Shown: positions 8,125 through 55,345, counted from the stretch's first letter. The stretch: 64,000 bases of DNA from Seinonella peptonophila (GCF_900129355.1 NZ_FQVL01000007.1:58106-122105); one strand, 5' to 3'. Translations and numbers: made by a program. Notes: a model not told the origin generated them from the letters alone.

Positions 8125-8131
8125 AATAAAT

Positions 8132-29009: not shown

Positions 29010-29258
29010 CCCTATGACGAGTGAGAAGGGACGGCAAAATTCCATATCAGACAAACAACTAGTGGAATGGCGCTGAAGCAGTAGTTTCTCATCGGGCAAA
29101 CGGTTCGAGTCTCCGCTAAGCGTACACCAGAGAGGAGAGTTTTGCCGGGTCAAGAAAGCTGACAGAATGTGACAGCAGACACATGTTTGTAAGACCAGAT
29201 CGGGGATTCGCTGTGAACCACGATTACGAGCAGATCACACGACTTTATTTACAAGCTG
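29010..29258 (+). repeat. intergenic repeat family A, copy A1 (upstream of catalase)
   Basis: shares GGGCAAAC(G/T)GTTCGAGTCTCC...GAGTTTTGCC(C/G)G...GAACC(A/G)CGAT...TTTRTCTACAAG with 41084-41365 and 55075-55345. Confidence 0.5.
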
Positions 29259-29298
29259 GGAAAATAAGAAAAGCATCTAAAAATCGATAAATCATGCT

Positions 29299-30711
29299 TT
29301 GATCATGAAGGGAAGATATTTTGTGAAAAAGTATTCAGCAAAAGATAAAGGTCTTAAAGATGTTTCTCACCCTGAAAAGTGGGAACAAGATGCTCCCGCT
29401 TCTTTGCATTCCCAAACTGTGGGGAAAAGAGGTCCTGTGCTTGAGCAGGATAATATTTTACATGAAACACTTGAAACGTTCATTCATGAAAAAATATTGG
29501 AACGTCCTGTTCATGTGAAAGGTTATGGTGCTTTTGGTTATTTTTATACCATTAACCCTATGACTGAGTTTACAAAGCTCTGTTTCTTACAACATCCTGG
29601 CGAGCAAGTCCCCGTTGCAGTTAGATTTTCACTTGCCGTAAGTACAAAAGGGACACCAGATACCTCACGAAATGTACGTGGATTTGCCACAAAGTTTTAT
29701 ACAGATGAAGGTATCTTTGATTTGATATGTAATCATCTTCCTGTATTTTTGGTTCGAGATGCCATTCGGTTTCCTGAGTCGATCAAAGCTTTTTTACCTT
29801 CACCAAAAAATAATCTGATCGATCCCGAGCGTTTCTGGAGTTTTGTAGCAAGAGCACCTGAGTCTACTCATTTTGTGGTTCGATTGTATTCAGATGCAGG
29901 TACAGCCAAGAGCTTACGACACATTCCAGGTCATGGTGTGAATACTTATGTGTGGCGAAATGCACAAAATGAGGTTACATATGTAAAGTATCATTGGATT
30001 CCATGTGCTGGTATTCAATATATTGACTATAAGGAAGCTGCATATTGGAGTGGGAAGGATCCAGATATTGCTGGAAAAGATTTATATCAGACCATACAAA
30101 GAGGAAATCCTATAGAATATCAATTATATGTACAGCTTATGAATCCTGTAGACGAAGCTCAACTCCCCTATGATCCACTTGATGATACGAAGGTCTGGGA
30201 TGAACAACAGTATCCTTTCATGCTTGTTGGTCAAATGGTGTTAAATAGTAATCCGGAAAACTATATGGAACAAGTAGAAAAAATTGCTTTTTCACCATCG
30301 AATCTATTAGAGGGTGCAGAGTTATCAGCTGATAAGATGTTACAAGGACGTGCTAATATATATTGGGATTCTCAACGTCGTAGGCTTGGGTCTGATTTCC
30401 GAAAAATACCAATTAATCAACAGAAAAATTGGACCCCCGCTGATCTTGTAACAAGTGGGTATGGCAATCGTGTAAAAGGTCGCCTTACTCGCAGTGATAT
30501 CCCCAAACAAGATAATTTCACACAAGCAGGTCAGTATTTTGATTCATTGGATATGTTAGGACAAAAACATCTCATCCAAAATCTTGCGCGAGATCTTGCT
30601 GGAATTTCCCACGAGATCCGAACGATTGTTTTAGAATATCTCTATCACTCCTCACAGGAACTAGGGGAACGTGTTGCCTATCAAATTGGCATGAAAGAAA
30701 GAGGAAGATAG
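29299..30711 (+). CDS. heme catalase (small-subunit type, divergent)
   Basis: ERPVHVKGYGAFGYF and RFSLAVSTKGTPDTSRNVRGFATKFYTDEGIFDLICNHLPVF match the catalase core; RANIYWDSQRRRLG resembles the proximal Tyr region. Confidence 0.75.
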   Translation: MIMKGRYFVKKYSAKDKGLKDVSHPEKWEQDAPASLHSQTVGKRGPVLEQDNILHETLETFIHEKILERPVHVKGYGAFGYFYTINPMTEFTKLCFLQHPGEQVPVAVRFSLAVSTKGTPDTSRNVRGFATKFYTDEGIFDLICNHLPVFLVRDAIRFPESIKAFLPSPKNNLIDPERFWSFVARAPESTHFVVRLYSDAGTAKSLRHIPGHGVNTYVWRNAQNEVTYVKYHWIPCAGIQYIDYKEAAYWSGKDPDIAGKDLYQTIQRGNPIEYQLYVQLMNPVDEAQLPYDPLDDTKVWDEQQYPFMLVGQMVLNSNPENYMEQVEKIAFSPSNLLEGAELSADKMLQGRANIYWDSQRRRLGSDFRKIPINQQKNWTPADLVTSGYGNRVKGRLTRSDIPKQDNFTQAGQYFDSLDMLGQKHLIQNLARDLAGISHEIRTIVLEYLYHSSQELGERVAYQIGMKERGR

Positions 30712-31084
30712 TTGGCGATCATATTGGGTTTCTATCACTTTATGATATTCAGTTAGAAGATGTCTTTATCAGTAAAAACAACAGAATATATCAATATATC
30801 TTATATATAATTCCCTGTGCTTTCTAACTTGGATATGACATCAGTTGCTTTAATAATAAACAGATTATTTATTTTATTTAAACTCATTATATAAGGAATG
30901 ATTCTATCATGTCGAATTGATTTCTATTCAATTTTATTTGTTTAGTATATAATTGAAAAAGTTCTCTTTCATATGCTTCAGATCTCAGAAAGGTCTAGCG
31001 GTGCCTTTGTTCTCTGAACCAAAGGTATGCCTGAAAGGTGAACTCACAATTATTCGAACGGTCAGAGGTTCAATTCCTCTATCG

Positions 31085-31170
31085 CCCAATCGGTGATTAG
31101 CTCAGTGGTAGAGCATTCGAAAATGGATTTTAAGGTTCGATTCCTTAATGGTTCTTTGGAAACCACATTA
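31085..31170 (+). pseudogene. degenerate tRNA-like sequence (intact D-arm AGCTCAGTGGTAGAGC and T-arm GGTTCGATTCC; anticodon arm and acceptor stem do not fold)
   Basis: read directly; no valid cloverleaf could be built. Confidence 0.35.
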
Positions 31171-31442
31171 AAACTACTAGATGTAACCTTTCTAGATATT
31201 CCTTTAGCACCTGTTGCTTGTTGGCAGGTGCACCAAGATAGAGGCTTTGCAGTGAACGGATATCGGGCAAGATAAGGCAGTTCTTACGGACAAGCTCTTT
31301 TTTAGACTTGATCAGGGTTCCTTGGTCTATGTTTGAGATGGATCTGTCTGGTAACAATTGTCTGAAACTTGTCCTCAAGTTACACTCCGCTAATATTTTG
31401 GAAAGGGTTTCTAGAAAGGTTCTAATTTTTTGGGGTGGAAAC

Positions 31443-32558
31443 ATGTTAAGAGTAAAGATCCAAAATGATGAAAGAGGACTTCTTTTTAAAGATGGAAACT
31501 ATATGAAGTGTCTGCAACCAGGGAAGTATTTTTATAATCCTTTTGTGAAATATAGCGTTGTGAAAGCAGATGTTAATCAGCCTTTTGATGGTGCAGGTAA
31601 AAATATCAATCTCTTTTTAGAAGATGAGGAGCTAGGAAAAGAACTAACGATTTTGGATGTTCAAGATTATGAGATTGCTATTCATTTTGAAGATGGAAAG
31701 CTTGTAGATGTATTAACAGCAGGCAAATATGCTTTTTGGAATGTATTGAAAAAGCATGAATTTATCATGGTAGACAAGAGAAATCCTGAGATTGATCCTA
31801 AGATCGATCTTTCCGTCTATAGTCATCCATTGATGTTTGAACATGTGACACACTTTCATGTGTTGAGCCATGAACAAGGTATTCTTTACTTTGACAATGT
31901 GGTACAGAAGATACTAGAACCAGGCATATACTCTTTTTGGAGAAGCCCGATTCAAGTAACTGTGCAAAAAATCGATTTGAGACAACAGCAGATCGATATG
32001 ACTGGACAAGAGATGATGACAGCAGATAAGGTTTCCATGAGACTTAACTTCGTTTGTCATTATCGGATTACAGATCCACTGAAAGTCATGCAGATTAAGT
32101 CGTTTGAAGAACAGATTTATATTGCACTGCAACTGATTTTAAGAGAGTATGTTGGAATCATGAAGCTCGATGATTTGTTGCTTAAAAAGCAAGAAGTAGG
32201 TCAATATGTTTTGCAAAAGCTACAGGAGAAAAACAATGAGTATGGAGTGGAGTTTATCTTTGCAGGGGTAAAGGATGTGATTTTACCTGGTGATATGAAA
32301 GAAATTTTAAACACCGTCCTGATCGCAGAGAAACAAGCCCAAGCGAATGTTATTACCAGAAGAGAAGAGACTGCCTCTACTCGAAGTTTACTAAATACGG
32401 CTAAGTTAATGGAAGAGAATCAAACGCTCTATAGGTTAAAGGAACTAGAATTTTTAGAAAAAATCTGTGAGAAAATAGGTAATATCTCTCTAACAGGTGA
32501 AAATAATCTACTGGAACAGCTGAATCAATTGGTCGCGAGAAATACAAATCATAAATAA
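31443..32558 (+). CDS. SPFH/band-7 (stomatin/flotillin-like) domain protein
   Basis: C-terminal half has the SPFH core plus a coiled-coil-like EKQAQANVITRREETAS... region; GGTGGA RBS. Confidence 0.65.
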   Translation: MLRVKIQNDERGLLFKDGNYMKCLQPGKYFYNPFVKYSVVKADVNQPFDGAGKNINLFLEDEELGKELTILDVQDYEIAIHFEDGKLVDVLTAGKYAFWNVLKKHEFIMVDKRNPEIDPKIDLSVYSHPLMFEHVTHFHVLSHEQGILYFDNVVQKILEPGIYSFWRSPIQVTVQKIDLRQQQIDMTGQEMMTADKVSMRLNFVCHYRITDPLKVMQIKSFEEQIYIALQLILREYVGIMKLDDLLLKKQEVGQYVLQKLQEKNNEYGVEFIFAGVKDVILPGDMKEILNTVLIAEKQAQANVITRREETASTRSLLNTAKLMEENQTLYRLKELEFLEKICEKIGNISLTGENNLLEQLNQLVARNTNHK

Positions 32559-32886
32559 ATGAAGGGTGATAGAACACGACAGCTCTACTTCCTAGAAGGC
32601 CTGGATCGGAGCGTTGCCGTGAAGCACGATCACGTGCTGGTCTCGCTTTGTCACCATCTTTTTCTCACATATTGAAAAGTATAGACCGATTCCGCCTTAT
32701 CGATTGGGGATCAGTGGATTCAGTTAGCATGAAAATTCCGCTGTTAGGTAGATCTGGTATGATAGGGCAGTAGGTCAAGTGGAGTTTGATATTATTCCTA
32801 ATATTATGCAAATTACCTCCGGAGCCTGGCACTCCGTAAAGCGCCAGTTCCGACACCCCGTGTGAAAGGAGGGTGTCATGGGTGGG

Positions 32887-33486
32887 TCAGTGGTGCTCGT
32901 TCAGCAGCATCACGATCGCGGCGAGCAGGTTCGCCTGAAGGGAGGCCCGCTTCCCCTGCGGGGCGTACGTGCCCTGCCCCTGAAGGCCCTTCCGGAGGTC
33001 CACCAGGATCCCGCCGATCGTGTCGAGCTGGCCAGCGATCGCCTTCGACGCGGGGGACTTCTTGATCTCGGAGATGATCTCCCTCGCGCGGTTCAGGTTC
33101 CTGAGGGACTCCTGCTTCTTCTCCTTGCTGACGCTGACGTCCAGCTTGGCGAGGAGGGAGAGCAGCGTGATCAGCCGGCTCGCCTCGGTTTCCTGCGGCG
33201 GCAGCTCGGCCTGGATGGCGGCGACCTGGTTGTCCGTCAGCTTCAGCATGTCGCTCTGCAGCAGGATGATGAACAGGTGACCGATGGCGTCCAGGTCGAT
33301 CTTGTCGCCGTCGGTCTTCTCCGTGGCGAGCTGCTTCGTCGTGGAGGACTGGTTCTGCGAGACCTCCTGCATCTTCGACGAGACGTCGCTCGGCAGCTCC
33401 AGCACCCCGGCGGCGATGAGGAAGAGGGTCAGCTCCAGGTTCCTGATCATGTCGGACTTGCTGAGCTGCTGGTTCGAGTGGGTCAT
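32887..33486 (-). CDS. hypothetical protein (199 aa) with roughly 65% GC, actinobacterial-like codon usage
   Basis: GC3 near-saturated on this strand; AAGGAG RBS before the ATG; the opposite-strand and other-frame ORFs are R/G/P/L-rich artefacts. Confidence 0.6.
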   Translation of the reverse strand: MTHSNQQLSKSDMIRNLELTLFLIAAGVLELPSDVSSKMQEVSQNQSSTTKQLATEKTDGDKIDLDAIGHLFIILLQSDMLKLTDNQVAAIQAELPPQETEASRLITLLSLLAKLDVSVSKEKKQESLRNLNRAREIISEIKKSPASKAIAGQLDTIGGILVDLRKGLQGQGTYAPQGKRASLQANLLAAIVMLLNEHH

Positions 33487-33752
33487 GTGCACTCCTTGCT
33501 TGAGCACCATTCACTTCCTACCTTAAAAGGCAGGTGGCTTCTCGGATGAAGCACCTGAATGGTTCGATAAAATTATCATATCATGAAAAAAGATAATTGT
33601 GCTAGAAGATATAAAACTGGGATTATATTCAATACATGAAGTATAGCGTTTAAAGTACAAGAAACGTTTTCGTTCGGAAATCTAATGTTTTATACTCCAT
33701 ACCTTTAGAATTAATTTATATACCGAATATTCATATCAGATCAATTCATTGA

Positions 33753-34442
33753 TTATGAATGACGACTTTTCTTTAGGAATGCTAATAAACGAATATCGAT
33801 TAAAAAATGCAGTATCATACAGACTACAATCGACTTTGTCCAAACGAAAATGACAGCGAGTAAAAAACCGAGCATACTTGTTACGATGACACCTCGCCAT
33901 CCTTGATACCAATGTGCCATCCCAAAAATGATGGTAGAAAAGAGAATGGCTAGCCAGATTGGGATGTGCCAATAATCAAGGAATAAGTACAGCAAATAGA
34001 CCCGAAAGAGCAACTCTTCGCAGAATCCTGCTGAAAATGATAAAAATGCCCATCCCCACTTATCTTTTGTGGTTGCGGGAAGAAAATCTTGATAGAGCTC
34101 TAGTTGTAAAACCATTCTTTTGCGAAACGGCTCATTGATGAAAGCCAAGAGAATAGGAACGAATGACCCTACTATCGAACCAATCACTAAATAAAGAGGG
34201 AATCCATCGAAAGAATGCCACCAATCAATTTTTATTTGGTAAAGATAACTGATCATAAAAAAGTAGAGTGTAATACCCCAGAGTATTGCCCCCCACCTTA
34301 TATATAAAGCAAAGCGTTTTGTAGGAGTTTGTTTTACTTGGAAAATAAATTTTTGATAACTCTTTTTTCCCCACCAAGGTTCAATGATAAGTAAATATAA
34401 AAACAAGATATGTATAAGAATAAACTGAATCATAGGAATCAT
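33753..34442 (-). CDS. CPBP-family intramembrane metalloprotease (CAAX protease/Abi)
   Basis: motifs EELLFR (EExxxR), FGMAHWY (FxxxH), LHFLID (HxxxD) in a multi-TM protein. Confidence 0.75.
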   Translation of the reverse strand: MIPMIQFILIHILFLYLLIIEPWWGKKSYQKFIFQVKQTPTKRFALYIRWGAILWGITLYFFMISYLYQIKIDWWHSFDGFPLYLVIGSIVGSFVPILLAFINEPFRKRMVLQLELYQDFLPATTKDKWGWAFLSFSAGFCEELLFRVYLLYLFLDYWHIPIWLAILFSTIIFGMAHWYQGWRGVIVTSMLGFLLAVIFVWTKSIVVCMILHFLIDIRLLAFLKKSRHS

Positions 34443-34887
34443 CCCTTAGATTTTAATAGTAAAGATTGAAAGCTGTCAATGTACCTATTTTTTAACAGTC
34501 TTTCCATAAGCGTATCTAGCGATAAAACCTAATTAGTACCAGGTCATTTGTGCAAAAAGTCTAATCATAATTGACAAATTATTGTATGATTGACTTGTAC
34601 TATAATATGATATCAATTGCAAATTAAATAAGAATCAACACAATCGATCGATCACCCACACAACCTACCTGCACAGTTCGAATTTCCTCAAATTTTAGTA
34701 TGTCAAATGGAAAGTTTCTTTTCTCTCACTATGAATGAAAAAAACTTAGCTTCGAAACGAATTCAAAGAAAATGATTTAGAAGGGGGCACATGATTACGG
34801 GAAATATCCATTAAGCTAAAGTGAGAAGTTATCATTCAGTCGGTTCTAGATCATAAGGACAGATGGCTATTTCCGTAATGTAAGTCG

Positions 34888-35937
34888 ATGATTCGAATAG
34901 TTAATCATAATCTGAAGAATAATTTACTTTCAATGAGGATCGGGTTCATTGTTGTATTGACATGTATGCTGGCTTTATCTACATTTATCTCACTTTCAAC
35001 GACAAAAGTCGAGGCAGCCGCAAACGGTGGCAAAGTGATGAGTGAGAAATGGCGTGATGATCGGACACTTGAGCTAACCATATCAAGCCCATCTGTTGAA
35101 GGGACAAAAAAAGTCCTGCTTTTACTTCCCAAGAGTTGGTCAAAAACAAGTGATCAGAAATGGCCGACATTATGGCTTTTACATGGTGGGGGAGGTAACC
35201 AGGTAGATTGGCTTAAAAATACTGATGTAGCGTCACTGACAAAAAATCTTGACTTGATCGTTGTCATGCCTGAGACAAGCGATTGCAGTGCCTATTCTGA
35301 TTGGTGGAACGATGGAAAATTGGGGAAACCTGCTTGGGAGACCTACTTAACAAAAGATGTTCGGGAAATCCTCGAATCTGGCTATAAGGCGAATGAAAAT
35401 CGTGCAATAGCTGGACTCTCTATGGGTGGATTAGGTGCTTTAAAACTAGCAGCGAATCATCCAAAGATGTTTCAGGCTGCTGCATCATTTAGTGGAAACG
35501 TAGATATTCTTCATCGATATAACAATAGTCTAACAGGCCCTGACTATCCAGGTCTCGGTTGTATTTCAAAATGGAAGAGCATCAATGACTGGAAACGAGT
35601 CTGGGGAGACCCACAGGTTCCCGCTCAAAAAGAGATCTGGAAGCGAAATAATCCTTATGATCAAGCAGAAAAATTATCACAACTTCATTACCTGTATGTC
35701 TCCAGTGGAACTGGTTTTGGAAGCCCTCTAAAAGTAGGGAATCAATTTGACTTGATTGAACAAGAAGTAAATCGACAAGCGCATGGATTAGTGGAGAAAC
35801 TCAATCAATTGCATATACCTGTTGCTTCTCATTTTTATAGTGGAAACCACAGTTGGCCATACTGGAAACAAGAATTACACAAAGCATTACCAGGGATCTT
35901 AAACGCTCTACATGTGGATGGCGATCATAAACAGTGA
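34888..35937 (+). CDS. secreted esterase-family alpha/beta hydrolase (PF00756-like); alternative start 34933 (MRIGFIVV... signal peptide)
   Basis: LLHGGGGN...GLSMGGLGAL nucleophile elbow; N-terminal signal peptide. Confidence 0.7.
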   Translation: MIRIVNHNLKNNLLSMRIGFIVVLTCMLALSTFISLSTTKVEAAANGGKVMSEKWRDDRTLELTISSPSVEGTKKVLLLLPKSWSKTSDQKWPTLWLLHGGGGNQVDWLKNTDVASLTKNLDLIVVMPETSDCSAYSDWWNDGKLGKPAWETYLTKDVREILESGYKANENRAIAGLSMGGLGALKLAANHPKMFQAAASFSGNVDILHRYNNSLTGPDYPGLGCISKWKSINDWKRVWGDPQVPAQKEIWKRNNPYDQAEKLSQLHYLYVSSGTGFGSPLKVGNQFDLIEQEVNRQAHGLVEKLNQLHIPVASHFYSGNHSWPYWKQELHKALPGILNALHVDGDHKQ

Positions 35938-35967
35938 GAAGAAAACCTCCGTTCAAATAACGGAGGT

Positions 35968-36327
35968 TCCAGACTGAAGAAAAACCAATATTTTGGTTAA
36001 AAATCATGGAAAATAAAGCATGTTTAAAGGAGGAAATGCTTTGCAATCTAGCCCGACTTTCAGGCACTACCAAGCCACGACTGTGTAGCGAAGAATAGAT
36101 GGTAGTACTGTCTGCGCACGCCGTGCACAAGTTTCGCTAAGCAGCTAACGCTGCAAGTCTCACTATGACGCGATAGCCGAGTTGATACCACCCTGAGCGA
36201 GCAGTCGTGGCGCCTTGAATACTTCTATGCAGCCTGAACTGGAGGCATCCATCTTTTTTTCAATAACACGGAGTGCATAAAGCTTGACTCACAGAAATGA
36301 AGGCGACTTATACTTTGTCCACAAGCT
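35968..36327 (+). mobile_element. repeat family B copy B1, about 360 bp non-coding element inserted in a terminator hairpin and flanked by 26-bp direct duplications (35942-35967 and 36328-36353: AAACCTCCGTTCAAATAACGGAGGTT)
   Basis: about 85% identical core to 56467-56827; no ORF; flanking hairpin duplicated. Confidence 0.5.
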
Positions 36328-36549
36328 GAAACCTCCGTTCAAATAACGGAGGTTCTTATGTTCATGCAATAATACGGCATTATGAGAGAAGGAGATTGAT
36401 CTAATATTTTGTGTTTAAATTTGAATATTCAGGGTATCATTAAATATAATTGGTTAACTATGTAACATTTTGCTAGTTGTAAATGAATATTGGTTAATTT
36501 CATGTTGTTATTTATCTTAAAGCTTATTTGAGAAAGGAGATATGCAAAT

Positions 36550-36726
36550 ATGGGACTCAAAGATTATTTCAAAGATATATTGAGAGAGAAGGCCACTGAG
36601 GCCGTGGTAGAAGTGGTTCAGGAAGGATATGAGTCCACAACAAAGAAGCCAACAAAATCAGAAGGGGAAGCATTAGAAGATGCAACGGACGCTATCACGC
36701 CGGAGCAAGAAAATAGAGAGCGTTAA
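36550..36726 (+). CDS. possible small acidic protein (58 aa)
   Basis: ORF below the ORF-track cutoff with an AAGGAG 11 nt upstream; weak. Confidence 0.25.
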   Translation: MGLKDYFKDILREKATEAVVEVVQEGYESTTKKPTKSEGEALEDATDAITPEQENRER

Positions 36727-36890
36727 ACAAAAAGTGAAAGTACATAAAGAAGTGAGTTATTTATGAACATAAGTCAATTGTTTAGATTGAAAGTGAGGAT
36801 AAGAGAGCTACGTGTTTGATCAAACCGAGGTACATTGAGATAATTTGCTAGACTTCATATAATCATTTTCTATTTAGAAAGTGGGATTAG

Positions 36891-37637: not shown

Positions 37638-38087
37638 GTGAAACATGTAGCCAATTTTAGTAATATGGAGAAATAACATTTAATAACTAAAGGAAAGAAT
37701 TGTATTCGGTATAATATGCTCATCAATCAAGCGTGTATCGATTGCACCAGCGAAAGTAGAGTGTTTTAAATGCCGTGACATGGGCTAGATGCAGTGAACA
37801 AGCGCTTTAGGATAAAGGGGTTTAGATATGTTAAGGTTGTTTAAATTTGGATGTTTACTTCTGATTTTAATTATTGCTTTAACTATGGGGGCCGTACTGT
37901 TTACATCAATTATGACACCTAGATAAAAGGTTCAATTTGATGGGTATCGATCAGTTGGTATGGTTCAGATTTATTTATTCTAGCAAGCTCAGCTTTAGTA
38001 AAACTCTATCAATTAGCCATCTATTAGTGGGAAAACTCATTGATAGATGGCTTTGGTAGTCTATGCGAAAAAAGAGGATATATAGGG

Positions 38088-38363: not shown

Positions 38364-38479
38364 TATCGAAAACCTTTCTAAGTTTGTTCGTTTAAATAAT
38401 TCTATATAATAAAACGAACAGAGTAAAGAAATCTTCTACTTCATTACAAAATATGGGTAAATAATGAGGAGGTGAATCG

Positions 38480-39250: not shown

Positions 39251-39299
39251 TTGAGATGTTAGTCAAATACGAAAGGGATTAACTTTTGTATTTGAAAAA

Positions 39300-39440: not shown

Positions 39441-39551
39441 AGGTTCCTTGATTATTGATTGAAAACTTAAATATGATCATACATGACAACTTGGGATAAA
39501 TTTTTTTGGAGATTTCACCAGTGAAAATAGAATTTTGAGAAAGGAAGAGAG

Positions 39552-40589: not shown

Positions 40590-41070
40590 AGAAGATTTAA
40601 AGGAGTACTGGTCGTTGCGACTTCGGTCCGTTCAAGAGCATCCTGAAGCTTTTATCCCGACAATAGAGGAATTGGATGATCAAAAATATATGGAGATGAC
40701 AGTACGGATCAAGCCAACAGATCTGTCTTGGTTTTTGGGAGCTTTTGAAAATGGAGAACTAGTTGGTGCCATGAGTTGGAAACGGGAAGAGCCAGCCAAG
40801 TTACAACATAAGTCACACATTTATGGTGTGTATGTAGTCCCAGAAGCACGACGAAAAGGAATCGGTCGGGCTTTACTAGAGCATCTCATTAGTCGAGTGA
40901 AAAAAGTAGCTGGAGTTGAACAAATTCTATTAACAGTTGCAAATTCAAATCCAGCCAAATCTCTTTATCTTCAGTGTGGATTTATATCCTATGGATATGA
41001 GAAGAAATCATTGAAAATTGGTGAAGCGTATGTAGACGGAGTGTTGATGGTTCTCTTTTTAAAGGATTGA
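40567..41070 (+). CDS. GNAT-family N-acetyltransferase
   Basis: VVPEARRKGIGRALLEHL acetyl-CoA binding motif. Confidence 0.75.
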   Translation: MQIRVLTEEDLKEYWSLRLRSVQEHPEAFIPTIEELDDQKYMEMTVRIKPTDLSWFLGAFENGELVGAMSWKREEPAKLQHKSHIYGVYVVPEARRKGIGRALLEHLISRVKKVAGVEQILLTVANSNPAKSLYLQCGFISYGYEKKSLKIGEAYVDGVLMVLFLKD

Positions 41071-41083
41071 GTCAATAAGGCTC

Positions 41084-41365
41084 TTCAGACTGACGAGAAA
41101 CACTAACGAGTGAGTGTAGAGATAATCGGCAAAGCTTTATTTCGGGCGCAACATAGTTCAATGACAACTGAAGCGGCATTTTCTTCTTGGGAAAACTGTT
41201 CGAGTCTCCTCAGGCACATGTCGAAGAAGTCGAGTTTTGCCCGATTGTGAAGGCTAACAGAAGCGAAGGCCCACATCCTGGAGGACCCGGTCGCGGAACA
41301 TCGCCGAGAACCGCGATCAAATGACTTTGTCTACAAGTTGGTGAGCCCCAAGGGCTCTTTTTTTA
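41084..41365 (+). repeat. intergenic repeat family A, copy A2, ending in a terminator hairpin (GAGCCCcaaGGGCTC + T7)
   Basis: homologous to 29010-29258 and 55075-55345; shares left end TTCAGACTGAcGAgAAAC with family B. Confidence 0.5.
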
Positions 41366-44548: not shown

Positions 44549-44624
44549 CGCGGGGTGGGGCAATTGGTAGCCCGTCGGGCTCATAACCCGAAGGTCGCAG
44601 GTTCAAATCCTGTCCCCGCAACCA
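44549..44624 (+). tRNA. initiator tRNA-fMet (CAT) with a C1-A72 mismatch
   Basis: CGCGGGG...CTCATAACCCGAAGGTCGCAGGTTCAAATCCTGTCCCCGCAACCA; closely matches bacterial tRNAfMet with three G-C pairs in the anticodon stem. Confidence 0.85.
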
Positions 44625-44628
44625 ATAT

Positions 44629-44705
44629 GGCGGTGTAGCTCAGTAGGCTAGAGCGTACGGTTCATACCCGTAAGGTCAGGGGTTCGAGGCCCTTCACCGC
44701 TACCA
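44629..44705 (+). tRNA. elongator tRNA-Met (CAT)
   Basis: GGCGGTGTAGCTCAG...ACGGTTCATACCCGT...GGTTCGAGGCCC...CGCTACCA. Confidence 0.8.
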
Positions 44706-44709
44706 AACA

Positions 44710-45903: not shown

Positions 45904-48354
45904 ATGTTGGAAGCGATTCAACCAAAAAAGAAACGGGGGCGAGGAGAATGGTGGCTAAGGCTACAGCATGTATGTAGTAACAAAATGAATCGCCTGATCC
46001 AAGTATATAATCTTCCAGTACTACTTATGGGGTTTTTACTCGGACGAGCAACCATTTTAGAGAGCGTCTCTCCTTTTGCGATTGCATATTTAGCAGTTGT
46101 CATGTATTTGGCAAAGAAACAATGGCCATCAGTGATGTTGTTTTTGGTCATGGGTAGTGCAACAGTCGATTGGATGCATGTAGCGAAGATATCCGTTTTT
46201 CTCATTCTCTTTGTCTTATTTCATCGAATCTTTCTTTGGTTTCATAAGGACCAGATTCATTTAGCTCCATTATTAGTCGCAATCAGCAGCATCATAGGGC
46301 AATGTGGATGGAGTTGGTATGAGGGTTGGACTGTTTATCAACTTATGTTAGCAGGTGTTGATTTATTACTAAGTGTGATTTTAACATTTATTTTTGTTCA
46401 CTCTCTACCGATTTTTACCATGCGAAAGAAACGGGTTTTTCTTCGTCCTGATGAAATTATTTGTTTGATTATCCTATTAGGTTCTGTTATCACAGGGATG
46501 CTGGAATGGCAAATCGAACAGTTATCCATTGTCAATATCATATCAAGATATCTAATTTGTCTATTTGCATTTGTAGGTGGAGGGATGTTAGGAGCATCAA
46601 TTGGCGTTGTCATTGGAATGACAATTTGTTTATCCGATCCAAAATCGATGATTCAAATGGGTTTGTTAACCTTTGCTGGACTTATGGCAGGCTTATTTCA
46701 AGAAGGAAAACGTTTTGGTTCCATGATTGGTTTTTTGCTGGGTTCCACTATTTTATCCCTCTTTCAAATGGGGACAGATCAGTTGTTGTTGTCCCTATGT
46801 GAGACAAGCATTGCGTTAGGTTTATTCCTACTCACTCCGAGTTCCTGGGTTCACGCATTTGCTCGCTATGTACCTGGAACCCCAGAGAACCAAACGTTGC
46901 ATCAGGATTATGTGCGGCGATTACGTGATGTAACTGCGGCAAAAGTAGATCATTTTGCCGAATTATTCAGTGAGTTAGCAGTTAGCTTTCGTGAAGATTC
47001 GGGGAAAAAAAAGAGAGAGGACGAGGAGCAACTACATCACTTTGTTCAAGGTGTGATGGAAGAAAGTTGCTTTGGTTGTAAACGATATCGGCACTGTTGG
47101 GACCAAAATCTGATGCGCACGTATCAGGAAATCACAGGATTAATGGCATGGGTAGAAGCGGATGCAGAAGGAGTGCCAAGTCACTGGTCACGCTACTGTA
47201 TTCATTCAGAAAAAGTATTACAAGAAGTTCGCATCCAATATCAAAGGGAACGGGAACAGCATTTATGGAAAGAACAGTTAAAAGAGACAAAAAGGATGGT
47301 TGGGACGCAGTTGATGGGTATGTCTGAGGTGATGGAACGGTTATCCACTGAGATTCGGCATGAGACAAAGGTATTGACGGCACAGGAGGAGCAGATCCAT
47401 GAATCATTAGAAGAACTTGGACTTTCCATTCAACGTGTTGATGTGATCAACTTAGAGGAGGGAAGAGTTGAAATTGAGGTAACTATGCCTCATCGGGATG
47501 CTTTTGATGAGTGTAGAAAATTGATAGCTCCTTTATTAACTGAGATTTTAGGAGAGCCGATTGCTGTTTATCGGAAAGTCATCAAAGGACATTCGAGCGG
47601 ATCATTAATTACGCTAGGTTCGGAACAGCGTTACACATTAAAGACAGGAGTTGCCCATGCAGCGAAAGGTGGACGCTATATTTCTGGTGATAGTTATTGC
47701 TATATGAATCTAGGAACGGGGAAATATGCAGTTGCTCTAAGTGACGGTATGGGAAATGGCCAGCGTGCGCAGGAAGAAAGTAGTGCAGCGCTCAAACTGT
47801 TGAAGAGGCTCCTGCAAGCGGGGATGAAAGAAGAGACTGCCGTTGAAACGGTCAATTCCATATTAAGTTTGCGCTCAGCTGATGAAATTTTTGCAACTAT
47901 TGACTTGGCTTTAGTAGATTTGCATACAGCGGCTGGTCGCTTTATGAAGATTGGTTCGACACCAGGGTTTATTAAACGGGGCAAAGAAGTATTTATGGTT
48001 TCCAGCGAGAGCCCGCCGATCGGGATCTTGAGCCATATTCAGGTAGAGCCGGTAGAGATGCGTTTGCGTTCAGGTGATTTATTAATTATGATGACAGATG
48101 GCGTTTATGATGCCCCGAGGCATGTTCTGAATAAAGATGCCTTTATGACACGAATGATTTCTGAAATTGAGACTCGTGATCCTCAAGACTTTGCTGATTG
48201 CTTGCTCGAAGCCGTGGTTCGATATCATCAGGGTGCGATTCATGATGATATGACAGTAATTGTCTCAAAACTGGAACGGTATACGCCAGAATGGTCAACC
48301 ATTCGATTACCTGGTATGGCTAGATTGGAAAGAACACAAGTAGCACTTTCTTAA
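45904..48354 (+). CDS. spoIIE: stage II sporulation protein E (PP2C phosphatase)
   Basis: 10-TM N-terminal domain plus C-terminal PP2C (GDSYCYMNLGTGKYAVALSDGMGNG). Confidence 0.9.
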   Translation: MLEAIQPKKKRGRGEWWLRLQHVCSNKMNRLIQVYNLPVLLMGFLLGRATILESVSPFAIAYLAVVMYLAKKQWPSVMLFLVMGSATVDWMHVAKISVFLILFVLFHRIFLWFHKDQIHLAPLLVAISSIIGQCGWSWYEGWTVYQLMLAGVDLLLSVILTFIFVHSLPIFTMRKKRVFLRPDEIICLIILLGSVITGMLEWQIEQLSIVNIISRYLICLFAFVGGGMLGASIGVVIGMTICLSDPKSMIQMGLLTFAGLMAGLFQEGKRFGSMIGFLLGSTILSLFQMGTDQLLLSLCETSIALGLFLLTPSSWVHAFARYVPGTPENQTLHQDYVRRLRDVTAAKVDHFAELFSELAVSFREDSGKKKREDEEQLHHFVQGVMEESCFGCKRYRHCWDQNLMRTYQEITGLMAWVEADAEGVPSHWSRYCIHSEKVLQEVRIQYQREREQHLWKEQLKETKRMVGTQLMGMSEVMERLSTEIRHETKVLTAQEEQIHESLEELGLSIQRVDVINLEEGRVEIEVTMPHRDAFDECRKLIAPLLTEILGEPIAVYRKVIKGHSSGSLITLGSEQRYTLKTGVAHAAKGGRYISGDSYCYMNLGTGKYAVALSDGMGNGQRAQEESSAALKLLKRLLQAGMKEETAVETVNSILSLRSADEIFATIDLALVDLHTAAGRFMKIGSTPGFIKRGKEVFMVSSESPPIGILSHIQVEPVEMRLRSGDLLIMMTDGVYDAPRHVLNKDAFMTRMISEIETRDPQDFADCLLEAVVRYHQGAIHDDMTVIVSKLERYTPEWSTIRLPGMARLERTQVALS

Positions 48355-48451
48355 TAAGTGCTTGTTCTATGAAGGGAAATGGTATAAAATATCATCATCT
48401 TAACTGTGTATTTGGGTTGATCGAGTCTACTCACTGAAGGGAAGAAAATGA

Positions 48452-49861
48452 TTGTTTCTCGATCGTTTACAGACAGCGATTCGTGAATATTCGCTTATAG
48501 ATGAGGGGGAGCGGGTTCTGGTCGGTGTATCCGGTGGACCCGACTCCATCGCATTGTTACACGGGCTCCACCAGTTGCGCGAAATTGGTCAGTGGAGCCT
48601 CTTTGTCATACATGTCAATCACTCTTTGCGGGGTGAGGAGAGCGATCAGGATGCCCGATATGTAACCCAATTTTGTCAGCAACGGCAGATTCCCTGTCAC
48701 ACAGTCAGAATTGATGTTTCAATGGAGGTGAAACAGAAAAAGGGGAATTTGCAGGCAGTAGCACGTGAACTTCGCTATGAACAGTTTCGAAAAGTAGCAA
48801 AGCAACTTAACATTACAAAACTAGCTCTTGCTCATCATGCGGATGACCAAGTAGAAACATTATTGATGCGTCTGCTTCGTGGAACAGGCATTCAAGGTCT
48901 AAGTGGAATTCATTGGACATATACATGGCAGGAACTTACAATTGTTCGCCCATTACTCGCCATACAAAGGCAACTAATTGAAGCGTATTGCGATGAGCAG
49001 AAGCTTTTTCCAAGATTTGATTCAAGCAATGAATCGTTGCACTATACTCGAAATCGGATTCGTAAAGAGCTTGTTCCGTTACTACTAACGTATAATCCAC
49101 GTGTAAAAGAAGCATTTATACAGTTAAGTCAGTTAGCTCAAACAGAAGAAGAAATGTGGCAATCCTTAGTGGCCGAAGCGATGAAAAAACATGTGAAGCA
49201 ACAGGGTGCATATACATATCGGATTCATGTAGAATCATTTCTTCACCTACCCGTTGCTTTACAAAGAAGAGTAGTTAAACTAATATTAAATTGTCTTGTG
49301 AAAAACGGAACAAGCGAAGTATCGCTGGAAATGGTAGAACAGGTGAGAAAAGTTCTTCATCACCATCTTCCATCGGTAAAAATCTCCCTCCCACATGGTT
49401 TAGTCGCTTACAGAGAGTATGAATCCTGTTTGATATCAATGCAAAGTGCTAAGCACCATCAGGATCATACGATGAAAAAAATTTTGATCCCTGGTGTTAC
49501 AAAGTTACCAGAATTTGATGGTGAATTAGAAGTGAAGCTGCTTGCTACACTGCCGTATAGGACCGAAGATAATACCCAAGCGGTCTTTGATGCAGATCAA
49601 ATGTGTGGATCGCTTTTTGTGCGTAGTCGTCGACCTGGAGACCGTATGTATTGTCAAGGGATGAAAGGGAGAAAACGTTTAAAAGATTTGCTGATGGAGG
49701 CTAAAATTCCCGCAGCCAACCGGGATCAGCAACCCATCGTCACCTTTGAAGATGAAGTCATTTGGGTGCCAGGTGTGCGTTGCTCCAAAATTGCAGCGCC
49801 TTCCTCCAAAACAAGGCGCTATCTCTATCTAACTTGGCGTAAGTATGGGAAGGGTAGGTGA
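48452..49861 (+). CDS. tilS: tRNA(Ile)-lysidine synthetase
   Basis: PP-loop VGVSGGPDSIAL; conserved position before hpt. Confidence 0.9.
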   Translation: MFLDRLQTAIREYSLIDEGERVLVGVSGGPDSIALLHGLHQLREIGQWSLFVIHVNHSLRGEESDQDARYVTQFCQQRQIPCHTVRIDVSMEVKQKKGNLQAVARELRYEQFRKVAKQLNITKLALAHHADDQVETLLMRLLRGTGIQGLSGIHWTYTWQELTIVRPLLAIQRQLIEAYCDEQKLFPRFDSSNESLHYTRNRIRKELVPLLLTYNPRVKEAFIQLSQLAQTEEEMWQSLVAEAMKKHVKQQGAYTYRIHVESFLHLPVALQRRVVKLILNCLVKNGTSEVSLEMVEQVRKVLHHHLPSVKISLPHGLVAYREYESCLISMQSAKHHQDHTMKKILIPGVTKLPEFDGELEVKLLATLPYRTEDNTQAVFDADQMCGSLFVRSRRPGDRMYCQGMKGRKRLKDLLMEAKIPAANRDQQPIVTFEDEVIWVPGVRCSKIAAPSSKTRRYLYLTWRKYGKGR

Positions 49862-49974
49862 CGAACTGTTACTTGAGATACATAGGAAGGTATATTTCGG
49901 TCACTTCTTGTGGATAGTGGTACTATACGCCCTAAATGAAAAACAGTTCTATGTACTTTGGTAGCAGGCATACC

Positions 49975-50517
49975 ATGAATCGAGATATTGAGAAAGTCTT
50001 ATTCACCAAGCAGCAAATTGAGGAGAGATTGGCAGAATTAGGGGCGCAACTTGCAGAGGAATACCATGGCAAAAAGCCATTATGTATTTGTATCTTAAAA
50101 GGAGCTGTTCCTTTCCTGTCCGCTCTGATCCAACAGATTGAAATACCATTAGAAATCGATTTTATGTCCGTTACCAGCTATGGAAGTTCCGCGAAATCTT
50201 CTGGGGTTGTACGCATTATGAAAGATTTGGATATATCGATTGAAGGGCGTCATGTACTCATTGTAGAAGATATCATTGATACTGGCTTAACACTGCGACA
50301 TTTAGTCGACCTGTTGGAACAGCGAAACCCTGCATCTGTCAAAACAGTAGCGCTACTGGATAAATCGATCTGTCGCACTGCTGATATAGAGGCGAATTAT
50401 GTAGGGTTTGAAGTACCGAATGAGTTTATTGTCGGCTTTGGATTGGATTATGATGAACAATATAGGAATTTACCTTATATTGGTGTCTTAAAAAAGGAAG
50501 TCTATCATATAGGGTAA
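49975..50517 (+). CDS. hpt: hypoxanthine-guanine phosphoribosyltransferase
   Basis: [18 protein letters not shown] motif; start chosen by homology (upstream alternative 49936). Confidence 0.85.
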
Positions 50518-50550
50518 AATATTTTTATGTGAACTGAGAGGAGGCCAAGG

Positions 50551-52518
50551 ATGAAACACTTCTTCCTCAGGAACGGGATACTATATATCATTCTCATCCT
50601 TGTAACCCTTGGGGTTGTAAATATGGTGGCGAACTCGGGAACAGAGACTTCGCAGCTTACTTATACTCAATATAGACAGCAGTTACAAGCTGGCAAGATT
50701 GCAGAAGTGACGGTTCGTGCTGAGGGAAATACTTATCATATTGAGGGTAAATACAAAGGAAAGCCTGAGAGATCATTTGTCACCCAAGGACCGATGTATG
50801 AAGGAAGTACTGTCGTTCAAGACTTGGATCATGCAAAAACAACGAAGGTAACTTTTGAGAAACAGAAGAGTGACTCCGTTTGGCTAACATTTTTTACATC
50901 GATCATACCTTTTGTGATCATTTTACTCTTGTTCTTCTTCCTGCTTAACCAAGCGCAGGGCGGCGGAAGCAGAGTGATGAACTTTGGTAAAAGCAAAGCG
51001 AAGCTCTATAATGAAGATAAGAAACGAGTCACCTTTGATGATGTAGCAGGTGCTGATGAAGAGAAGGCAGAGCTTGTAGAGGTAGTTGATTTCCTAAAAG
51101 ATAATCGACGATTTGCAGCGATTGGTGCGCGGATTCCAAAAGGTGTCTTGCTTGTGGGTCCTCCTGGTACAGGTAAAACTTTACTTGCACGCGCAGTCGC
51201 TGGAGAGGCAAAGGTACCTTTCTTCTCCATTAGTGGATCGGACTTTGTAGAAATGTTTGTCGGTGTAGGTGCTTCAAGGGTTCGTGATCTTTTTGAACAG
51301 GCGAAGAAGAATGCACCATGTATTATCTTTATTGATGAGATAGATGCTGTAGGTCGTCAGCGTGGCGCTGGACTCGGTGGTGGTCACGATGAACGTGAGC
51401 AAACATTGAACCAATTGCTCGTCGAAATGGATGGCTTTGATGCAAATGCTGGAATCATCATCATGGCTGCAACAAACCGCCCAGATATTCTCGACCCTGC
51501 ATTATTACGCCCCGGTCGTTTTGATCGTCAAATTTTGGTCAATCGTCCGGATGTGAAAGGACGCGAAGAAGTTCTTCGTGTTCATGCTCGAAATAAACCA
51601 ATCTCCAAGCGTGTGAAGTTGAGTGTTATCGCTCAACGTACCACTGGTTTCTCAGGCGCCGACTTGGAAAACTTGTTGAATGAAGCTGCTCTCTTGGCCG
51701 CTCGATTTAATAAGAAAGAGATCGGTATGGAAGAGATCGATGAAGCGATTGATCGCGTGATTGCTGGACCTCAAAAGAAAAGTCGGGTGATCTCTGAGAA
51801 AGAACGGCAGATTGTTGCCTATCATGAATCTGGTCATGTGTTAGCTGGATATTATTGTGAGAATGCGGATACAGTTCATAAAGTAACCATTGTTCCACGT
51901 GGGCAAGCTGGCGGTTATGCAATGATGTTGCCTAAAGAAGATCGTTACTTAGCTACCAAAAGTGAACTGCTTGATCGCGTAACAGGCTTACTCGGTGGTC
52001 GTGTTGCCGAAGATGTCGTCTTTGGTGAAGTAAGTACAGGGGCGAGTAATGATTTTGAGAAGGCGACAGCGATTGTCCGTGCCATGATCACAGAGTATGG
52101 AATGAGTAAACGATTGGCAACGATGCAATTTGGTCGTTCTCAAGGTCAAGTTTTCCTCGGTCGCGATCTAGGACATGAGCAGAACTATAGTGAAGAAGTT
52201 GCACGGCTGATTGATGAAGAGATGCAAGAGCTGATTCAAGAATGCTACGATCGTGCAAAAAGGTTGTTGACAGAGCATCGTGATAAGTTGGAATTAATGG
52301 CTCAAACACTGCTGAAGCGTGAAACATTAGATGAAAATCAAATTAAACAGCTTTTGGAGACAGGTGAGCTAAAAGACGACTTAGAAGATGAAGATGTAGT
52401 AGTAAATATTAAAGGTAAAGAAGATCGCAACGATGAAGTGAAAGAGACAACAGACGATACAGAGCCAGCCGATTCTGATCGTGAGTCAACCCATGAAGAG
52501 AAGAAAAATAACGATTAA
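50551..52518 (+). CDS. ftsH: ATP-dependent zinc metalloprotease FtsH
   Basis: GPPGTGKT Walker A, SRH, HESGHV HEXXH. Confidence 0.95.
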
Positions 52519-52584
52519 TTGGGTTCACAATCTGGCACTCCAGGCCTGGGGTGCTATTTTTTATGTATAGGAAGGGTGGTATCT

Positions 52585-53367
52585 ATGCTATTTGTAATCG
52601 ATGTAGGCAATACAAATATTGTATTAGGAATTTATCGGGAACGTGAATTGGTCTATCATTGGCGCATTCATACAGATCGTGAAGCGACTGAAGATGAATA
52701 TGCAATGCTGATCAAAAATTTACTGCAAGATGTTCATTTAAAATGGGGCAATATAAAAGGTGTTGCGATCTCATCAGTCGTACCACCACTCACCTATGTA
52801 CTTCGTAAATGGTCAGAAAAATATCTTTCGATTGACCCGATTGTGCTAGAACCTGGTGTAAAAACGGGAATGAATATATTATATGACTCTCCACGTGATG
52901 TAGGGGCAGATCGGATTGTAAATGCAGTCGCTGCCAGCGAAAAATTTGGAGGCCCTGTTATTATCGTAGACTTTGGGACGGCTACAACTTTTTGTCTTGT
53001 TGATGAACATAAGAATTATCGAGGAGGGATTATTGCTCCTGGGATTCATGTCTCGTTAGAAGCTTTAGTCTCACGCACGGCAAAGCTGCCCCGTGTTGAA
53101 GTAGCTAGGCCAGAAGAAGTGGTCGGTCGGAATACGATCAATGCGATGCAGTCAGGGCTTTATTATGGATATGTAGGGTCGGTAGATGGGGTTGTCAATC
53201 GGATTAAGCAAACATTGACAAAGAAGCCAACTGTTGTTGCTACTGGTGGGTTGGCCCGTTTGATAGCAGAGGATGCCGATACCATTGATTATATCGAGCC
53301 TTGGCTTACTTTAGAAGGGTTGCGACTGATCTATGAAAGAAATAGAGGTGAACAAGAAAATGTCTAG
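52585..53367 (+). CDS. coaX: type III pantothenate kinase
   Basis: MLFVIDVGNTNIVLG...; ASKHA fold. Confidence 0.9.
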   Translation: MLFVIDVGNTNIVLGIYRERELVYHWRIHTDREATEDEYAMLIKNLLQDVHLKWGNIKGVAISSVVPPLTYVLRKWSEKYLSIDPIVLEPGVKTGMNILYDSPRDVGADRIVNAVAASEKFGGPVIIVDFGTATTFCLVDEHKNYRGGIIAPGIHVSLEALVSRTAKLPRVEVARPEEVVGRNTINAMQSGLYYGYVGSVDGVVNRIKQTLTKKPTVVATGGLARLIAEDADTIDYIEPWLTLEGLRLIYERNRGEQENV

Positions 53368-54229
53368 TTATATTGTTCGTGCGATTGCTCGAAACGGTGA
53401 AGTTCGTGCTTTTGCTGCGGAAACACGTTCACTCGTACAGGAGGCAGTCAATCGCCATCTCACATTCCCTGTAGCAAGCGCTGCATTGGGGCGCACTTTA
53501 ACGATGGGTGCCATTTGGAGTGCGATCTTAAAAGAAGAGCAAGAAGTGGTGACAATCAGGGTTGAGGGTGATGGTCCACTTGGCAAGGTGATCGTACATG
53601 CCAATGGAGCTGGTGAAGTTCGCGGATTAGTTGATGAGCCACAGATTGAAGTGCCCAACTATCCAGATGGTAAATTAAATGTAGCAGCGGCTGTAGGTCA
53701 GGGAATGATCCATATCTCAAAAGATATTGGCTTACGGGAGCCTTACCAAGGTAGCTCGCCTATTGTTTCAGGTGAATTGGCTGAGGATTTCACTTATTAT
53801 TTTACCACATCAGAGCAGACGCCTTCTTCTGTAGGACTTGGTATCTTGGTACAGAGAGAACAGATTCTACAAGCTGGTGGGTATCTACTTCAAGTATTAC
53901 CTCAAGCGACAGATGAGACGATCTCCCGCTTAGAAGAGCGAATCAGTCAGCTCACGTCGATCACCGATTTTTATCAGCAAGGAGGCTCGCCAGAGAAGCT
54001 ATTGGAACACATACTTGGCGAAAATCTAAATTTCTTATCACAAACAGAAGTAACATTCTCGTGTCGGTGTTCGAATGAGAGCGTGGCAAATATGTTACGA
54101 AGTCTAGGGAAGAAAGAAATCCAATCGATTATAGACGAAATCGGCTATGCAGAGGTAACCTGCCACTTCTGCAATGAAAAGTATCATTTTGATCAAACAC
54201 AGTTGTTGCAGTTGATTGATCAACCTTAA
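53360..54229 (+). CDS. hslO: redox-regulated chaperone Hsp33
   Basis: C-terminal CRCS...CHFC zinc centre. Confidence 0.9.
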   Translation: MSSYIVRAIARNGEVRAFAAETRSLVQEAVNRHLTFPVASAALGRTLTMGAIWSAILKEEQEVVTIRVEGDGPLGKVIVHANGAGEVRGLVDEPQIEVPNYPDGKLNVAAAVGQGMIHISKDIGLREPYQGSSPIVSGELAEDFTYYFTTSEQTPSSVGLGILVQREQILQAGGYLLQVLPQATDETISRLEERISQLTSITDFYQQGGSPEKLLEHILGENLNFLSQTEVTFSCRCSNESVANMLRSLGKKEIQSIIDEIGYAEVTCHFCNEKYHFDQTQLLQLIDQP

Positions 54230-54293
54230 AATGACGGACACGCCCGCCGCTCCGAAGAGCGGGGGCGTGCCGTGACCCGGGGTTGTGGGAGGG

Positions 54294-54668
54294 TCAGTCC
54301 TCGGCGTTGTCCTCGTCGGCCGGTCGCATCTTCACGGCGACGACGATCCCGATGGCGAACAGGATGAACAGGAAGGGGAACTGGCTGACGATCGCGCCGG
54401 CGTAGAAGCCGAGCAGCGCCATGCCCGGACGCCACTTCTTGACGAACAGCTCCAGCTTCGTGGCGAAGTGCCCGCCGACGGTGCTCTGCTGCTCCATCTT
54501 CTTGGAGATGCGCACGGCGGCGAAGAGCACACAGAGGGCGAAGAGCGCGGGGACTCCGATGACGACCGTCATCATGAAGCTGTCAAACCCGATGAGCAGG
54601 CCGATGAGGGTGGTCCCGATGCTCACTGAGGTGGCGGCGCTCGGACGGAGGAAGGACGATTTGGACAT
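54294..54668 (-). CDS. hypothetical small membrane protein on a roughly 62% GC island between hslO and cysK
   Basis: three hydrophobic helices; the only frame in this GC-rich stretch with protein-like composition; GC-rich terminator hairpin at 54245-54275. Confidence 0.45.
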   Translation of the reverse strand: MSKSSFLRPSAATSVSIGTTLIGLLIGFDSFMMTVVIGVPALFALCVLFAAVRISKKMEQQSTVGGHFATKLELFVKKWRPGMALLGFYAGAIVSQFPFLFILFAIGIVVAVKMRPADEDNAED

Positions 54669-55074
54669 GACTTTCCCTTTCGGGTTTGCTGCCACAGGCA
54701 GTTACGAACGGAATCTGATTCTGTTCGGTAGCTTCACTAGGGATCTAGCGAATTCACCTTGTAAATGCTCCAATCTGGACAAGGTGAAAAGGGCAACTAC
54801 CTACTTGATTTCAACATAGCATGTGGATAAGGATGATGCAAGTTACAAGGAGCAGTAGATGGTTCGGAGGATAGAATTTCTAGGTCTTAACTAAGAAGTC
54901 CGTTTGAAGCAATGAGCAAACGAGGTAGCACATTTGTGATCGGATTGCGCCTGCATATTTGTAATTTTTCATCATGCTTGACCACCCCCTACGTATGAAA
55001 TGCGGGGGATGCTTATGTAATCTCTCACAACTGAGAGAAATCGAATCAATTAAGCGTGCATCCGACGTTATAAA

Positions 55075-55345
55075 TTCAGCTTGAAGAAAACCCCTTAAAC
55101 GAGTGGAGAGGTAATCGGCAAAGCTCCATTTCGGGCGCAACTTAGCGGAATGGCAGCTGAAGCGGTATTTTCCTTACGGGCAAACTGTTCAAGTCTCCGC
55201 AGGCGGATGCCGGAGGAGGCGAGTTTTGCCCGACCACAAAAGCTGTCAGAACGCGGACAGATTCACATCCTTGCAAGCCCGGGTCGGAGCAAAGCCGTAA
55301 GCCACGATCACGAGCCGCCGATCACGGAGCTTTGTCTACACTCTG
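55075..55345 (+). repeat. intergenic repeat family A, copy A3 (upstream of cysK)
   Basis: homologous to A1/A2; shares the TTCAGcTTGAAGAAAAC left end. Confidence 0.5.

Follow-up and report, generated by a model that had tools for sequence, protein, structure and literature searches.

Within a 64-kb stretch of Seinonella peptonophila DNA (NZ_FQVL01000007.1, positions 58106 to 122105; hereafter, the window), three copies of a repeat of about 260 bp, here named family A, lie in the intergenic regions upstream of the genes for catalase, MazG/YabN, and CysK. A profile of the three copies was searched against the whole window with nhmmer. As a result, matches were obtained at 55076-55351 (E = 9e-87), 41085-41350 (E = 1e-79), and 29001-29268 (E = 6e-77), together with a fragment at 32559-32653 (E = 1.4e-12), and no further match was found in the 64 kb. 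Every one of them is on the plus strand. These data indicated that the copies described in an initial annotation of this DNA do exist at the loci given there and share a single orientation, with coordinates that are only slightly shifted.

The best preserved copy, A3 (55077-55345), is bounded by terminal inverted repeats at 55077-55092 and 55330-55345. Those of A2 (41086-41340) are located at 41086-41101 (CAGACTGACGAGAA) and 41325-41340 (TTTGTCTACAAGTTG), and A1 (29001-29258), the oldest copy, retains the 3′ inverted repeat at 29243-29258 (TTTATTTACAAGCTG) and has a degenerate 5′ end. The fragment corresponds to profile positions 163 to 261, exhibits a degenerate 3′ terminus, and begins directly 3′ of the stop codon of a Band_7 gene. 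Family A copies are 249 to 269 bp in length and 74 to 82% identical to each other in pairwise comparison, and their G+C content is 47 to 55% versus 39.5% for the window. The core pattern GTTCRAGTCTCC-N(20-35)-GAGTTTTGCC occurs three times versus 0.00 expected. All family A motifs quoted in the initial annotation were present, although several appear as variants in single copies: GGGCAAAC becomes GGGAAAAC in A2, GTTCGAGTCTCC becomes GTTCAAGTCTCC in A3, and GAGTTTTGCCCG becomes ...GCCGG in A1; A3 and the fragment carry CACGATCAC unchanged, with CACGATTAC in A1 and CGCGATCAA in A2; and A2 and A3 carry TTTGTCTACA unchanged, with TTTATTTACA in A1. We found that the 5′ half of the repeat is an imperfect inverted copy of its 3′ half, which accounts for the potential long-range stem noticed earlier. 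Family A does not code for a protein, as the reading frames are interrupted differently in each copy, and a six-frame pseudo-protein profile had no homologue at E ≤ 1 among 5.8 billion clusters.

A second family of elements, family B, has the same type of ends. It comprises B1 (35970-36328, plus strand), B2 (56469-56817, plus strand), and B3 (14616-14790, minus strand; nhmmer E = 8e-9), the last of which is internally deleted, with a 3′ terminus reading TTTTTCTACAAACTG and a degenerate 5′ end, and lies downstream of a minus-strand RibD_C gene in the same orientation. The interiors of B1 and B2 are about 90% identical to each other and unrelated to that of family A, such that only the ends are common to the two families. 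The initial annotation had pointed to a shared 5′ end, and this holds; beyond that claim, the 3′ end is common as well. Both termini are about 16 bp long, 5′ CAGMYTGAAGAAAA and 3′ TTTGTCYACAAGCTG, or, in general form, CAGACTGAAGAAAA(A/C)C at the 5′ end and ACTTTGTCYACAAGCTG at the 3′ end. One end is an imperfect inverted repeat of the other, since CAGMYTGAAGAAAA matches the reverse-complemented 3′ end, CAGCTTGTAGACAAAG, at about 12 of 15 positions, and the 3′-end pattern accordingly matches the minus strand at the 5′ end of A3 (55077-55091). In pattern scans, the terminal motifs fell exactly on the boundaries of A2, A3, and B1, and they were also present at the 5′ end of B2 (56469) and at the 3′ ends of A1 (29243-29258) and B3 (14616-14630). 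When the 76-amino-acid open reading frame (ORF) of B2 was searched against 1.84 billion representatives, there was no match.

Direct duplications of the flanking DNA were then identified for four of these elements. The clearest belongs to B1, which is flanked by a perfect 27-bp duplication (27/27) at 35943-35969 and 36329-36355, AAACCTCCGTTCAAATAACGGAGGTTC, representing the terminator hairpin of an esterase gene. B2 is inserted in the cysK terminator, and its duplication of about 26 bp (56443-56468 and 56818-56843) agrees at 21 of 26 positions read from the junctions and at 18 of 19 in a 19-bp core. By local alignment, none of 300 shuffles scored as high as B1 (27/27) or the B2 core (18/19) (p < 0.004). 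A3 is flanked by 9 bp (9/9) at 55067-55075 and 55346-55354, GTTATAAAT, containing the palindrome TTATAA; the downstream copy abuts the 3′ terminus, one extra T lies between the upstream copy and the element, and a duplication of this quality touching both junctions has a p value of about 0.03. For A2, a putative 19-bp duplication consists of an upstream copy at 41067-41085 (TTGAGTCAATAAGGCTCTT), a degenerate terminator hairpin of a GNAT gene that overlaps the GNAT stop codon, and a downstream copy at 41341-41359 on the plus strand, a functional-looking terminator (GAGCCCCAAGGGCTC plus a T7 run). Read from the junctions, 13 of 19 positions agree, which was not significant by local alignment. 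No flanking duplication was detectable for A1 and B3. Each of the three longer duplications, those of A2, B2, and B1 (19, 26, and 27 bp), amounts to a terminator hairpin plus 0 to 2 nucleotides (nt) per side. Furthermore, the downstream duplicate in B1, A2, and B2 is a terminator-like hairpin, and the T-run is retained in this downstream copy only.

These data bear on the position of family A relative to the neighboring genes. In the initial annotation, A2 was said to end in a canonical terminator. A terminator scan did reveal a terminator-like site at 41343-41357 with a T7 run behind it, but the repeat unit does not include this site: it is the duplicated, displaced terminator of the upstream GNAT gene and not part of the repeat. 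Because this terminator intervenes between A2 and yabN, A2 is not in the yabN leader. Likewise, A3 is not in the cysK leader, because the cysK promoter (55418-55447, plus strand; TTGACA-18-TAAGAT, TG-extended), which is conserved in relatives, lies 3′ of A3. The fragment follows the Band_7 stop codon, and for A1 no promoter was found on either side, so that A1 is the only copy that could still be in a leader. Thus, we could not confirm the claim that all family A copies reside in 5′ leaders. The genes downstream of the copies, coding for catalase, MazG/YabN, and CysK, have no common pathway. As a separate observation at this locus, a palindrome, AAATCCTAT-N-ATAGGAATAGGAGG, is present between the cysK promoter and the start codon (55448-55494) and in two relatives (L083:1090-1140 and L084:9450-9499); it may be a candidate repressor operator of a CymR-like type.

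To place the insertions in context, we compared the hslO-cysK spacer with five relative loci that span it (L083, L084, L087, L089, and L090). CysK and the catalase of the window have 100% identity to proteins of S. peptonophila, whereas the nearest relatives compared are uncultured and show 81 to 88% CysK identity. The spacer is 82 to 210 nt long in four of the five loci versus 1,266 nt in the window, and no A3-type copy was present at the orthologous cysK site in any of the five. In the fifth locus, L089 (85% CysK identity), an IS200/IS605 element coding for a Y1 transposase and TnpB occupies the spacer (L089:1334-2793). With A3 and an island of high G+C content in the window and the IS200/IS605 element in L089, the hslO-cysK spacer is a recurrent landing site. 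In 68.6 kb of DNA from the relatives, we found neither a copy of family A or B nor a pair of terminal motifs, against about seven expected at the density of the window. Searches elsewhere were negative too: the family A core pattern had no match in a genome collection in which the source genome was evidently out of reach and a single match in a metagenome collection, the latter being a chance hit to a tRNA T-arm, and A3 and B1 had no match among plasmids by blastn. In these comparisons, the nearest nonself homologues of the catalase were 77 to 79% identical, and the HprT homologues among the matches listed came from distant taxa and were at most 61% identical.

Evidence for further copies came from the Logan assembly of the isolate (k = 31), in which contigs are interrupted within A3 (55203) and on either side of the B2 core (56549 and 56784), with a neighboring contig running for 82.8 kb. 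The longest exact match between elements within the window is 14 nt for family A and 28 nt for family B. We therefore infer that near-identical copies exist elsewhere in the genome, which in turn would point to recent activity. Following the Logan contigs of the isolate outward from the window added 8.4 kb and 2.8 kb of sequence, in which no further copy was found. As for the elements within the window, A3 and B1 are recent, and A1, B3, and the family A fragment are decaying.

The elements of family A are small and noncoding, carry terminal inverted repeats, are flanked by duplications, and occur as dispersed copies with presence or absence between relatives. [quoted passage not shown] The initial annotation had left the choice between a cis-regulatory or small RNA (sRNA) family and a MITE; the latter is favored by the inverted-repeat ends and target duplications, and the former gained no support from Rfam, covariation, the folds of the two strands, or position. 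In the proposed mechanism, a DDE-type transposase encoded elsewhere in the genome would bind the ends shared by families A and B and would join them to a palindromic or cruciform target at both of its feet, and gap repair would then duplicate the entire stem-loop. At a terminator, such an insertion would leave an upstream hairpin copy devoid of the T-run, and only the downstream copy could terminate transcription; therefore, the element would be cotranscribed as a 3′ untranslated region (UTR) of the upstream gene.

Comparison with known systems is consistent with this scheme in part. Bacterial MITEs, including Correia elements of Neisseria, RUP from Streptococcus pneumoniae, bcr1 from the Bacillus cereus group, and ERIC, are small (50 to 800 bp), noncoding, and intergenic, with terminal inverted repeats, target duplications, and the potential to fold back into a rod; more than one family may use the ends of a single transposase, and the copies are lineage restricted and decay. 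The elements described here are similar in these respects. They differ in that the best-conserved block of family A is internal and in that the target duplications of typical MITEs have a fixed length of 2 to 10 bp (PMC11602168), whereas those described here range from 9 to 27 bp, the longer ones tracking the size of the hairpin. The resemblance to the IS1182 family concerns palindrome targeting only. Direct repeats in that family are 0 to 60 bp in ISfinder. Two of its members in staphylococci, IS1272 and TnSha1, target stem-loops that lack a sequence consensus and are often intrinsic terminators, with junctions at the feet of the hairpin (PMC4923244, PMC5678879). However, both of them delete the targeted hairpin (PMC4923244); IS1272 deletes or replaces the stem-loop without any duplication and inserts in both orientations, whereas in families A and B the whole stem-loop is duplicated and the elements are co-oriented with the upstream gene. 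That the entire stem-loop is duplicated is the outcome predicted by Wan et al. for the case in which the element ends attack the 5′ feet of a cruciform, a pathway that is hypothetical (PMC5678879, Fig. 13, pathway b). Unusually long target duplications of variable length are also known for IS1634 and IS1549 of the IS1634 family (8 to 514 bp; PMC2266710), but these are autonomous insertion sequences of 1.5 to 2 kb for which no link to hairpins is reported. The end consensus of the IS1634 family (C-----YT) is only loosely compatible with CAGACTGA, and assignment to a parent family from the end sequence alone was judged unreliable.

The first of the two readings in the initial annotation was a new cis-regulatory RNA, which would be a riboswitch or leader within the 5′ UTRs of the catalase gene, yabN, and cysK. 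It agrees with the location of every copy on the plus strand, upstream of plus-strand genes, and with the consensus fold of the three family A copies, an extended rod formed by pairing of the 5′ half to the 3′ half, with 87.5% of the cells paired. In single-copy folding, A3 is mildly more stable than shuffled sequence (z = −2.2 to −2.4), but the folds of A1 (z = −0.6) and A2 (z = −0.1) are no more stable than those of shuffles. The initial annotation had noted no match to the T-box, S-box, glycine, or ZTP consensus. Rfam detected two tRNAs only in the whole window at the gathering score, with no match to family A, and nothing credible for A2 and A3 at E ≤ 10. Compensatory base changes, proposed there as a check, gave no signal above shuffles, as the two double-sided changes in family A were reached or exceeded in 259 of 500 shuffles; three sequences provide little power, and this result is an absence of support rather than a proof of absence. 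Moreover, on each strand the covariation term of the consensus fold is positive and thus a penalty (+3.57), and the two strands fold equally well, with a consensus energy of −38.4 (plus) versus −33.2 (minus) kcal/mol for the three copies and a minimum free energy of −95.3 (plus) versus −94.4 (minus) for A3. The stem of family A is therefore a dyad symmetry at the DNA level and not a strand-specific RNA structure. Together with A3 lying upstream of the conserved cysK promoter, the terminator that cuts A2 off from yabN, downstream genes lacking a common pathway, and the absence of the element upstream of cysK in the five relatives, these results largely refute a leader RNA, to which we now give next to no probability. 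Another role in RNA, that of a mobile element exapted as the 3′ UTR of the upstream gene or as a multicopy sRNA in which the internal hairpin GGGCAAAC...GTTTTGCCC is functional, appears quite unlikely to us, even if it fares better than a leader. Read-through of the element would be expected where the downstream hairpin alone retains a T-run, the four elements located within terminator hairpins or directly behind one have the orientation of the upstream gene, the internal core is conserved better than the termini, G-U pairs exceed A-C mismatches on the plus strand, and sRNAs are known to arise from some MITEs (reviewed in PMC10969869). On the other hand, there is no strand-specific structural signal, no covariation, and no promoter-like site inside any copy; the copies decay, with pairs broken in A1 and A2 and one copy reduced to a truncated fragment, and the conservation pattern in three sequences may be due to chance.

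Explanations in which the repeats are mobile by other means, or not mobile at all, were also considered. An element of another class, i.e., an IS200/IS605-derived palindrome-associated element or a stand-alone guide-RNA scaffold, a REPIN, or a group II intron remnant, would fit the occurrence of the elements on one strand (the leading strand by GC skew), their association with hairpins, and the IS200/IS605 element (TnpA plus TnpB) in the hslO-cysK spacer of L089. IS200/IS605-derived elements are characterized by subterminal hairpins and insertion 3′ of a fixed motif of 4 to 5 nt, with neither inverted-repeat ends nor target duplication. Neither terminal inverted repeats nor target duplications occur in such classes, whereas the repeats described here have both, and on this ground an IS200/IS605 element or guide-RNA scaffold was rejected. 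In addition, the repeats show no similarity to the L089 IS605 locus, have no Rfam match to group II introns, HEARO, or IS605-associated motifs, and, at about 260 bp, are far above REPIN size, making this whole group of explanations very improbable. Paralogous intergenic DNA that does not move, arising from segmental duplication or chance similarity, would be in line with merely three to four copies, all inside 26 kb. We see hardly any likelihood in it, given that the flanks are unrelated, similarity ends exactly at the inverted-repeat termini, target duplications are present, the core pattern occurs three times versus none expected, and the assembly breaks indicate more copies elsewhere. A tRNA-derived element was dismissed as well: GTTCGAGTCTCC is T-arm-like, but no stem is possible around it. 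Finally, retro-mobility carrying the terminator along was rejected, given that the hairpin flanking the element differs from copy to copy and is duplicated locally.

Several points weigh against our interpretation of family A as MITE-like transposons with structure-directed insertion. Only three full family A copies were examined (n = 3), and a clean duplication in this family is found only at A3, with the 13/19 agreement at A2 not significant by itself and none at A1. The terminal inverted repeats are imperfect, the A1 5′ end is degenerate, and the duplication lengths are atypical for a MITE. Within family A, conservation is highest in an internal block (GGGCAAACNGTTCRAGTCTCC ... GAGTTTTGCC) and not at the ends, which is unusual for a MITE. 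Orientation poses a further difficulty: B1, A2, and B2 are in terminator hairpins and B3 is just downstream of one, all four pointing in the direction of the gene upstream of them, and the plus strand carries six of the seven elements, which is unexpected for a symmetric cruciform target, albeit with small numbers (p about 0.1). On the plus strand, 25 G-U pairs were counted versus 10 A-C mismatches, a count that is biased because the structure was predicted on that strand. Scans of 29 ORFs of the window, comprising most of its longer ones, against Pfam or NCBIfam revealed no transposase, and since none with these ends was found, mobility is deduced solely from the anatomy of the elements. The internal core conservation, the co-orientation, and the G-U excess are the points for which an exapted role as RNA retains a small probability.

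Other features of the window were recorded in the course of this work. Four islands of high G+C content (56 to 61% versus 39.5% in the window) are located at 9181-10080, 24291-25370, 32791-33550, and 54171-54750, each of which holds an ORF without a Pfam or NCBIfam family, such as 32887-33510 (minus strand) and the membrane-like 54294-54695 (minus strand). They are probably recent foreign DNA; the relatives' hslO-cysK spacers, at 82 to 210 nt, have no room for the island at 54.2 to 54.7 kb. Two of the islands adjoin family A members, namely, the fragment and A3. A link between the elements and the neighboring islands was examined and rejected, as no common flanks were found; nor do the islands have flanks in common with one another. 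At one end of the window, an antiphage GAPS4 system (591-3755) includes GapS4a (1649-2608; E = 9e-109) and GapS4b (2556-3755; E = 2e-113), preceded by an ORF with Pfam NA37 in the contig annotation. Next to it, large direct repeats occupy 3917-8648, in which 4046-4220 and 5823-5996 are 96 to 98% identical and 6010-6390 and 8274-8648 are 88 to 96% identical. Each repeat unit opens with a sequence resembling a tRNA 3′ end (GGTCGCAGGTTCAAATCCTG...CACCA; 3917-3969 and 5692-5744), and the Logan contig of the isolate also breaks in this block, at about 3949. The block has the appearance of islands that integrated in tandem at an att site beside the defense genes. Two adjacent tRNA-Met (CAT) genes, 4 nt apart, are found at 44549-44705, between a yabR-like region and spoIIE.

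Taken together, the above-described results suggest that in genome annotation these repeats should be masked as relics of mobile elements and not modeled as a new riboswitch or sRNA family, and they document that repeats have expanded in a lineage-specific manner in a genus of the Thermoactinomycetaceae that has received little study. The hairpin-sized duplications (19, 26, and 27 bp), along with the 9-bp duplication containing a palindrome, constitute a natural data set for the idea that certain DDE transposases act at the feet of cruciforms, in contrast to IS1272, where the hairpin is deleted. A bolder view, which we put forward tentatively and regard as rather unlikely, is that families A and B are moved by a transposase that reads DNA structure and not sequence, capturing extruded terminator hairpins, linking the element ends to both feet of the stem-loop, thereby duplicating the whole terminator, and inserting in a fixed orientation relative to transcription, with the internal core perhaps serving as an RNA- or protein-binding cargo module. 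If this were true, each insertion would become a 3′ UTR module of the upstream gene with termination preserved, and these elements would exemplify in nature the stem-loop-duplicating pathway, which for the IS1182 family is to date a hypothesis only.

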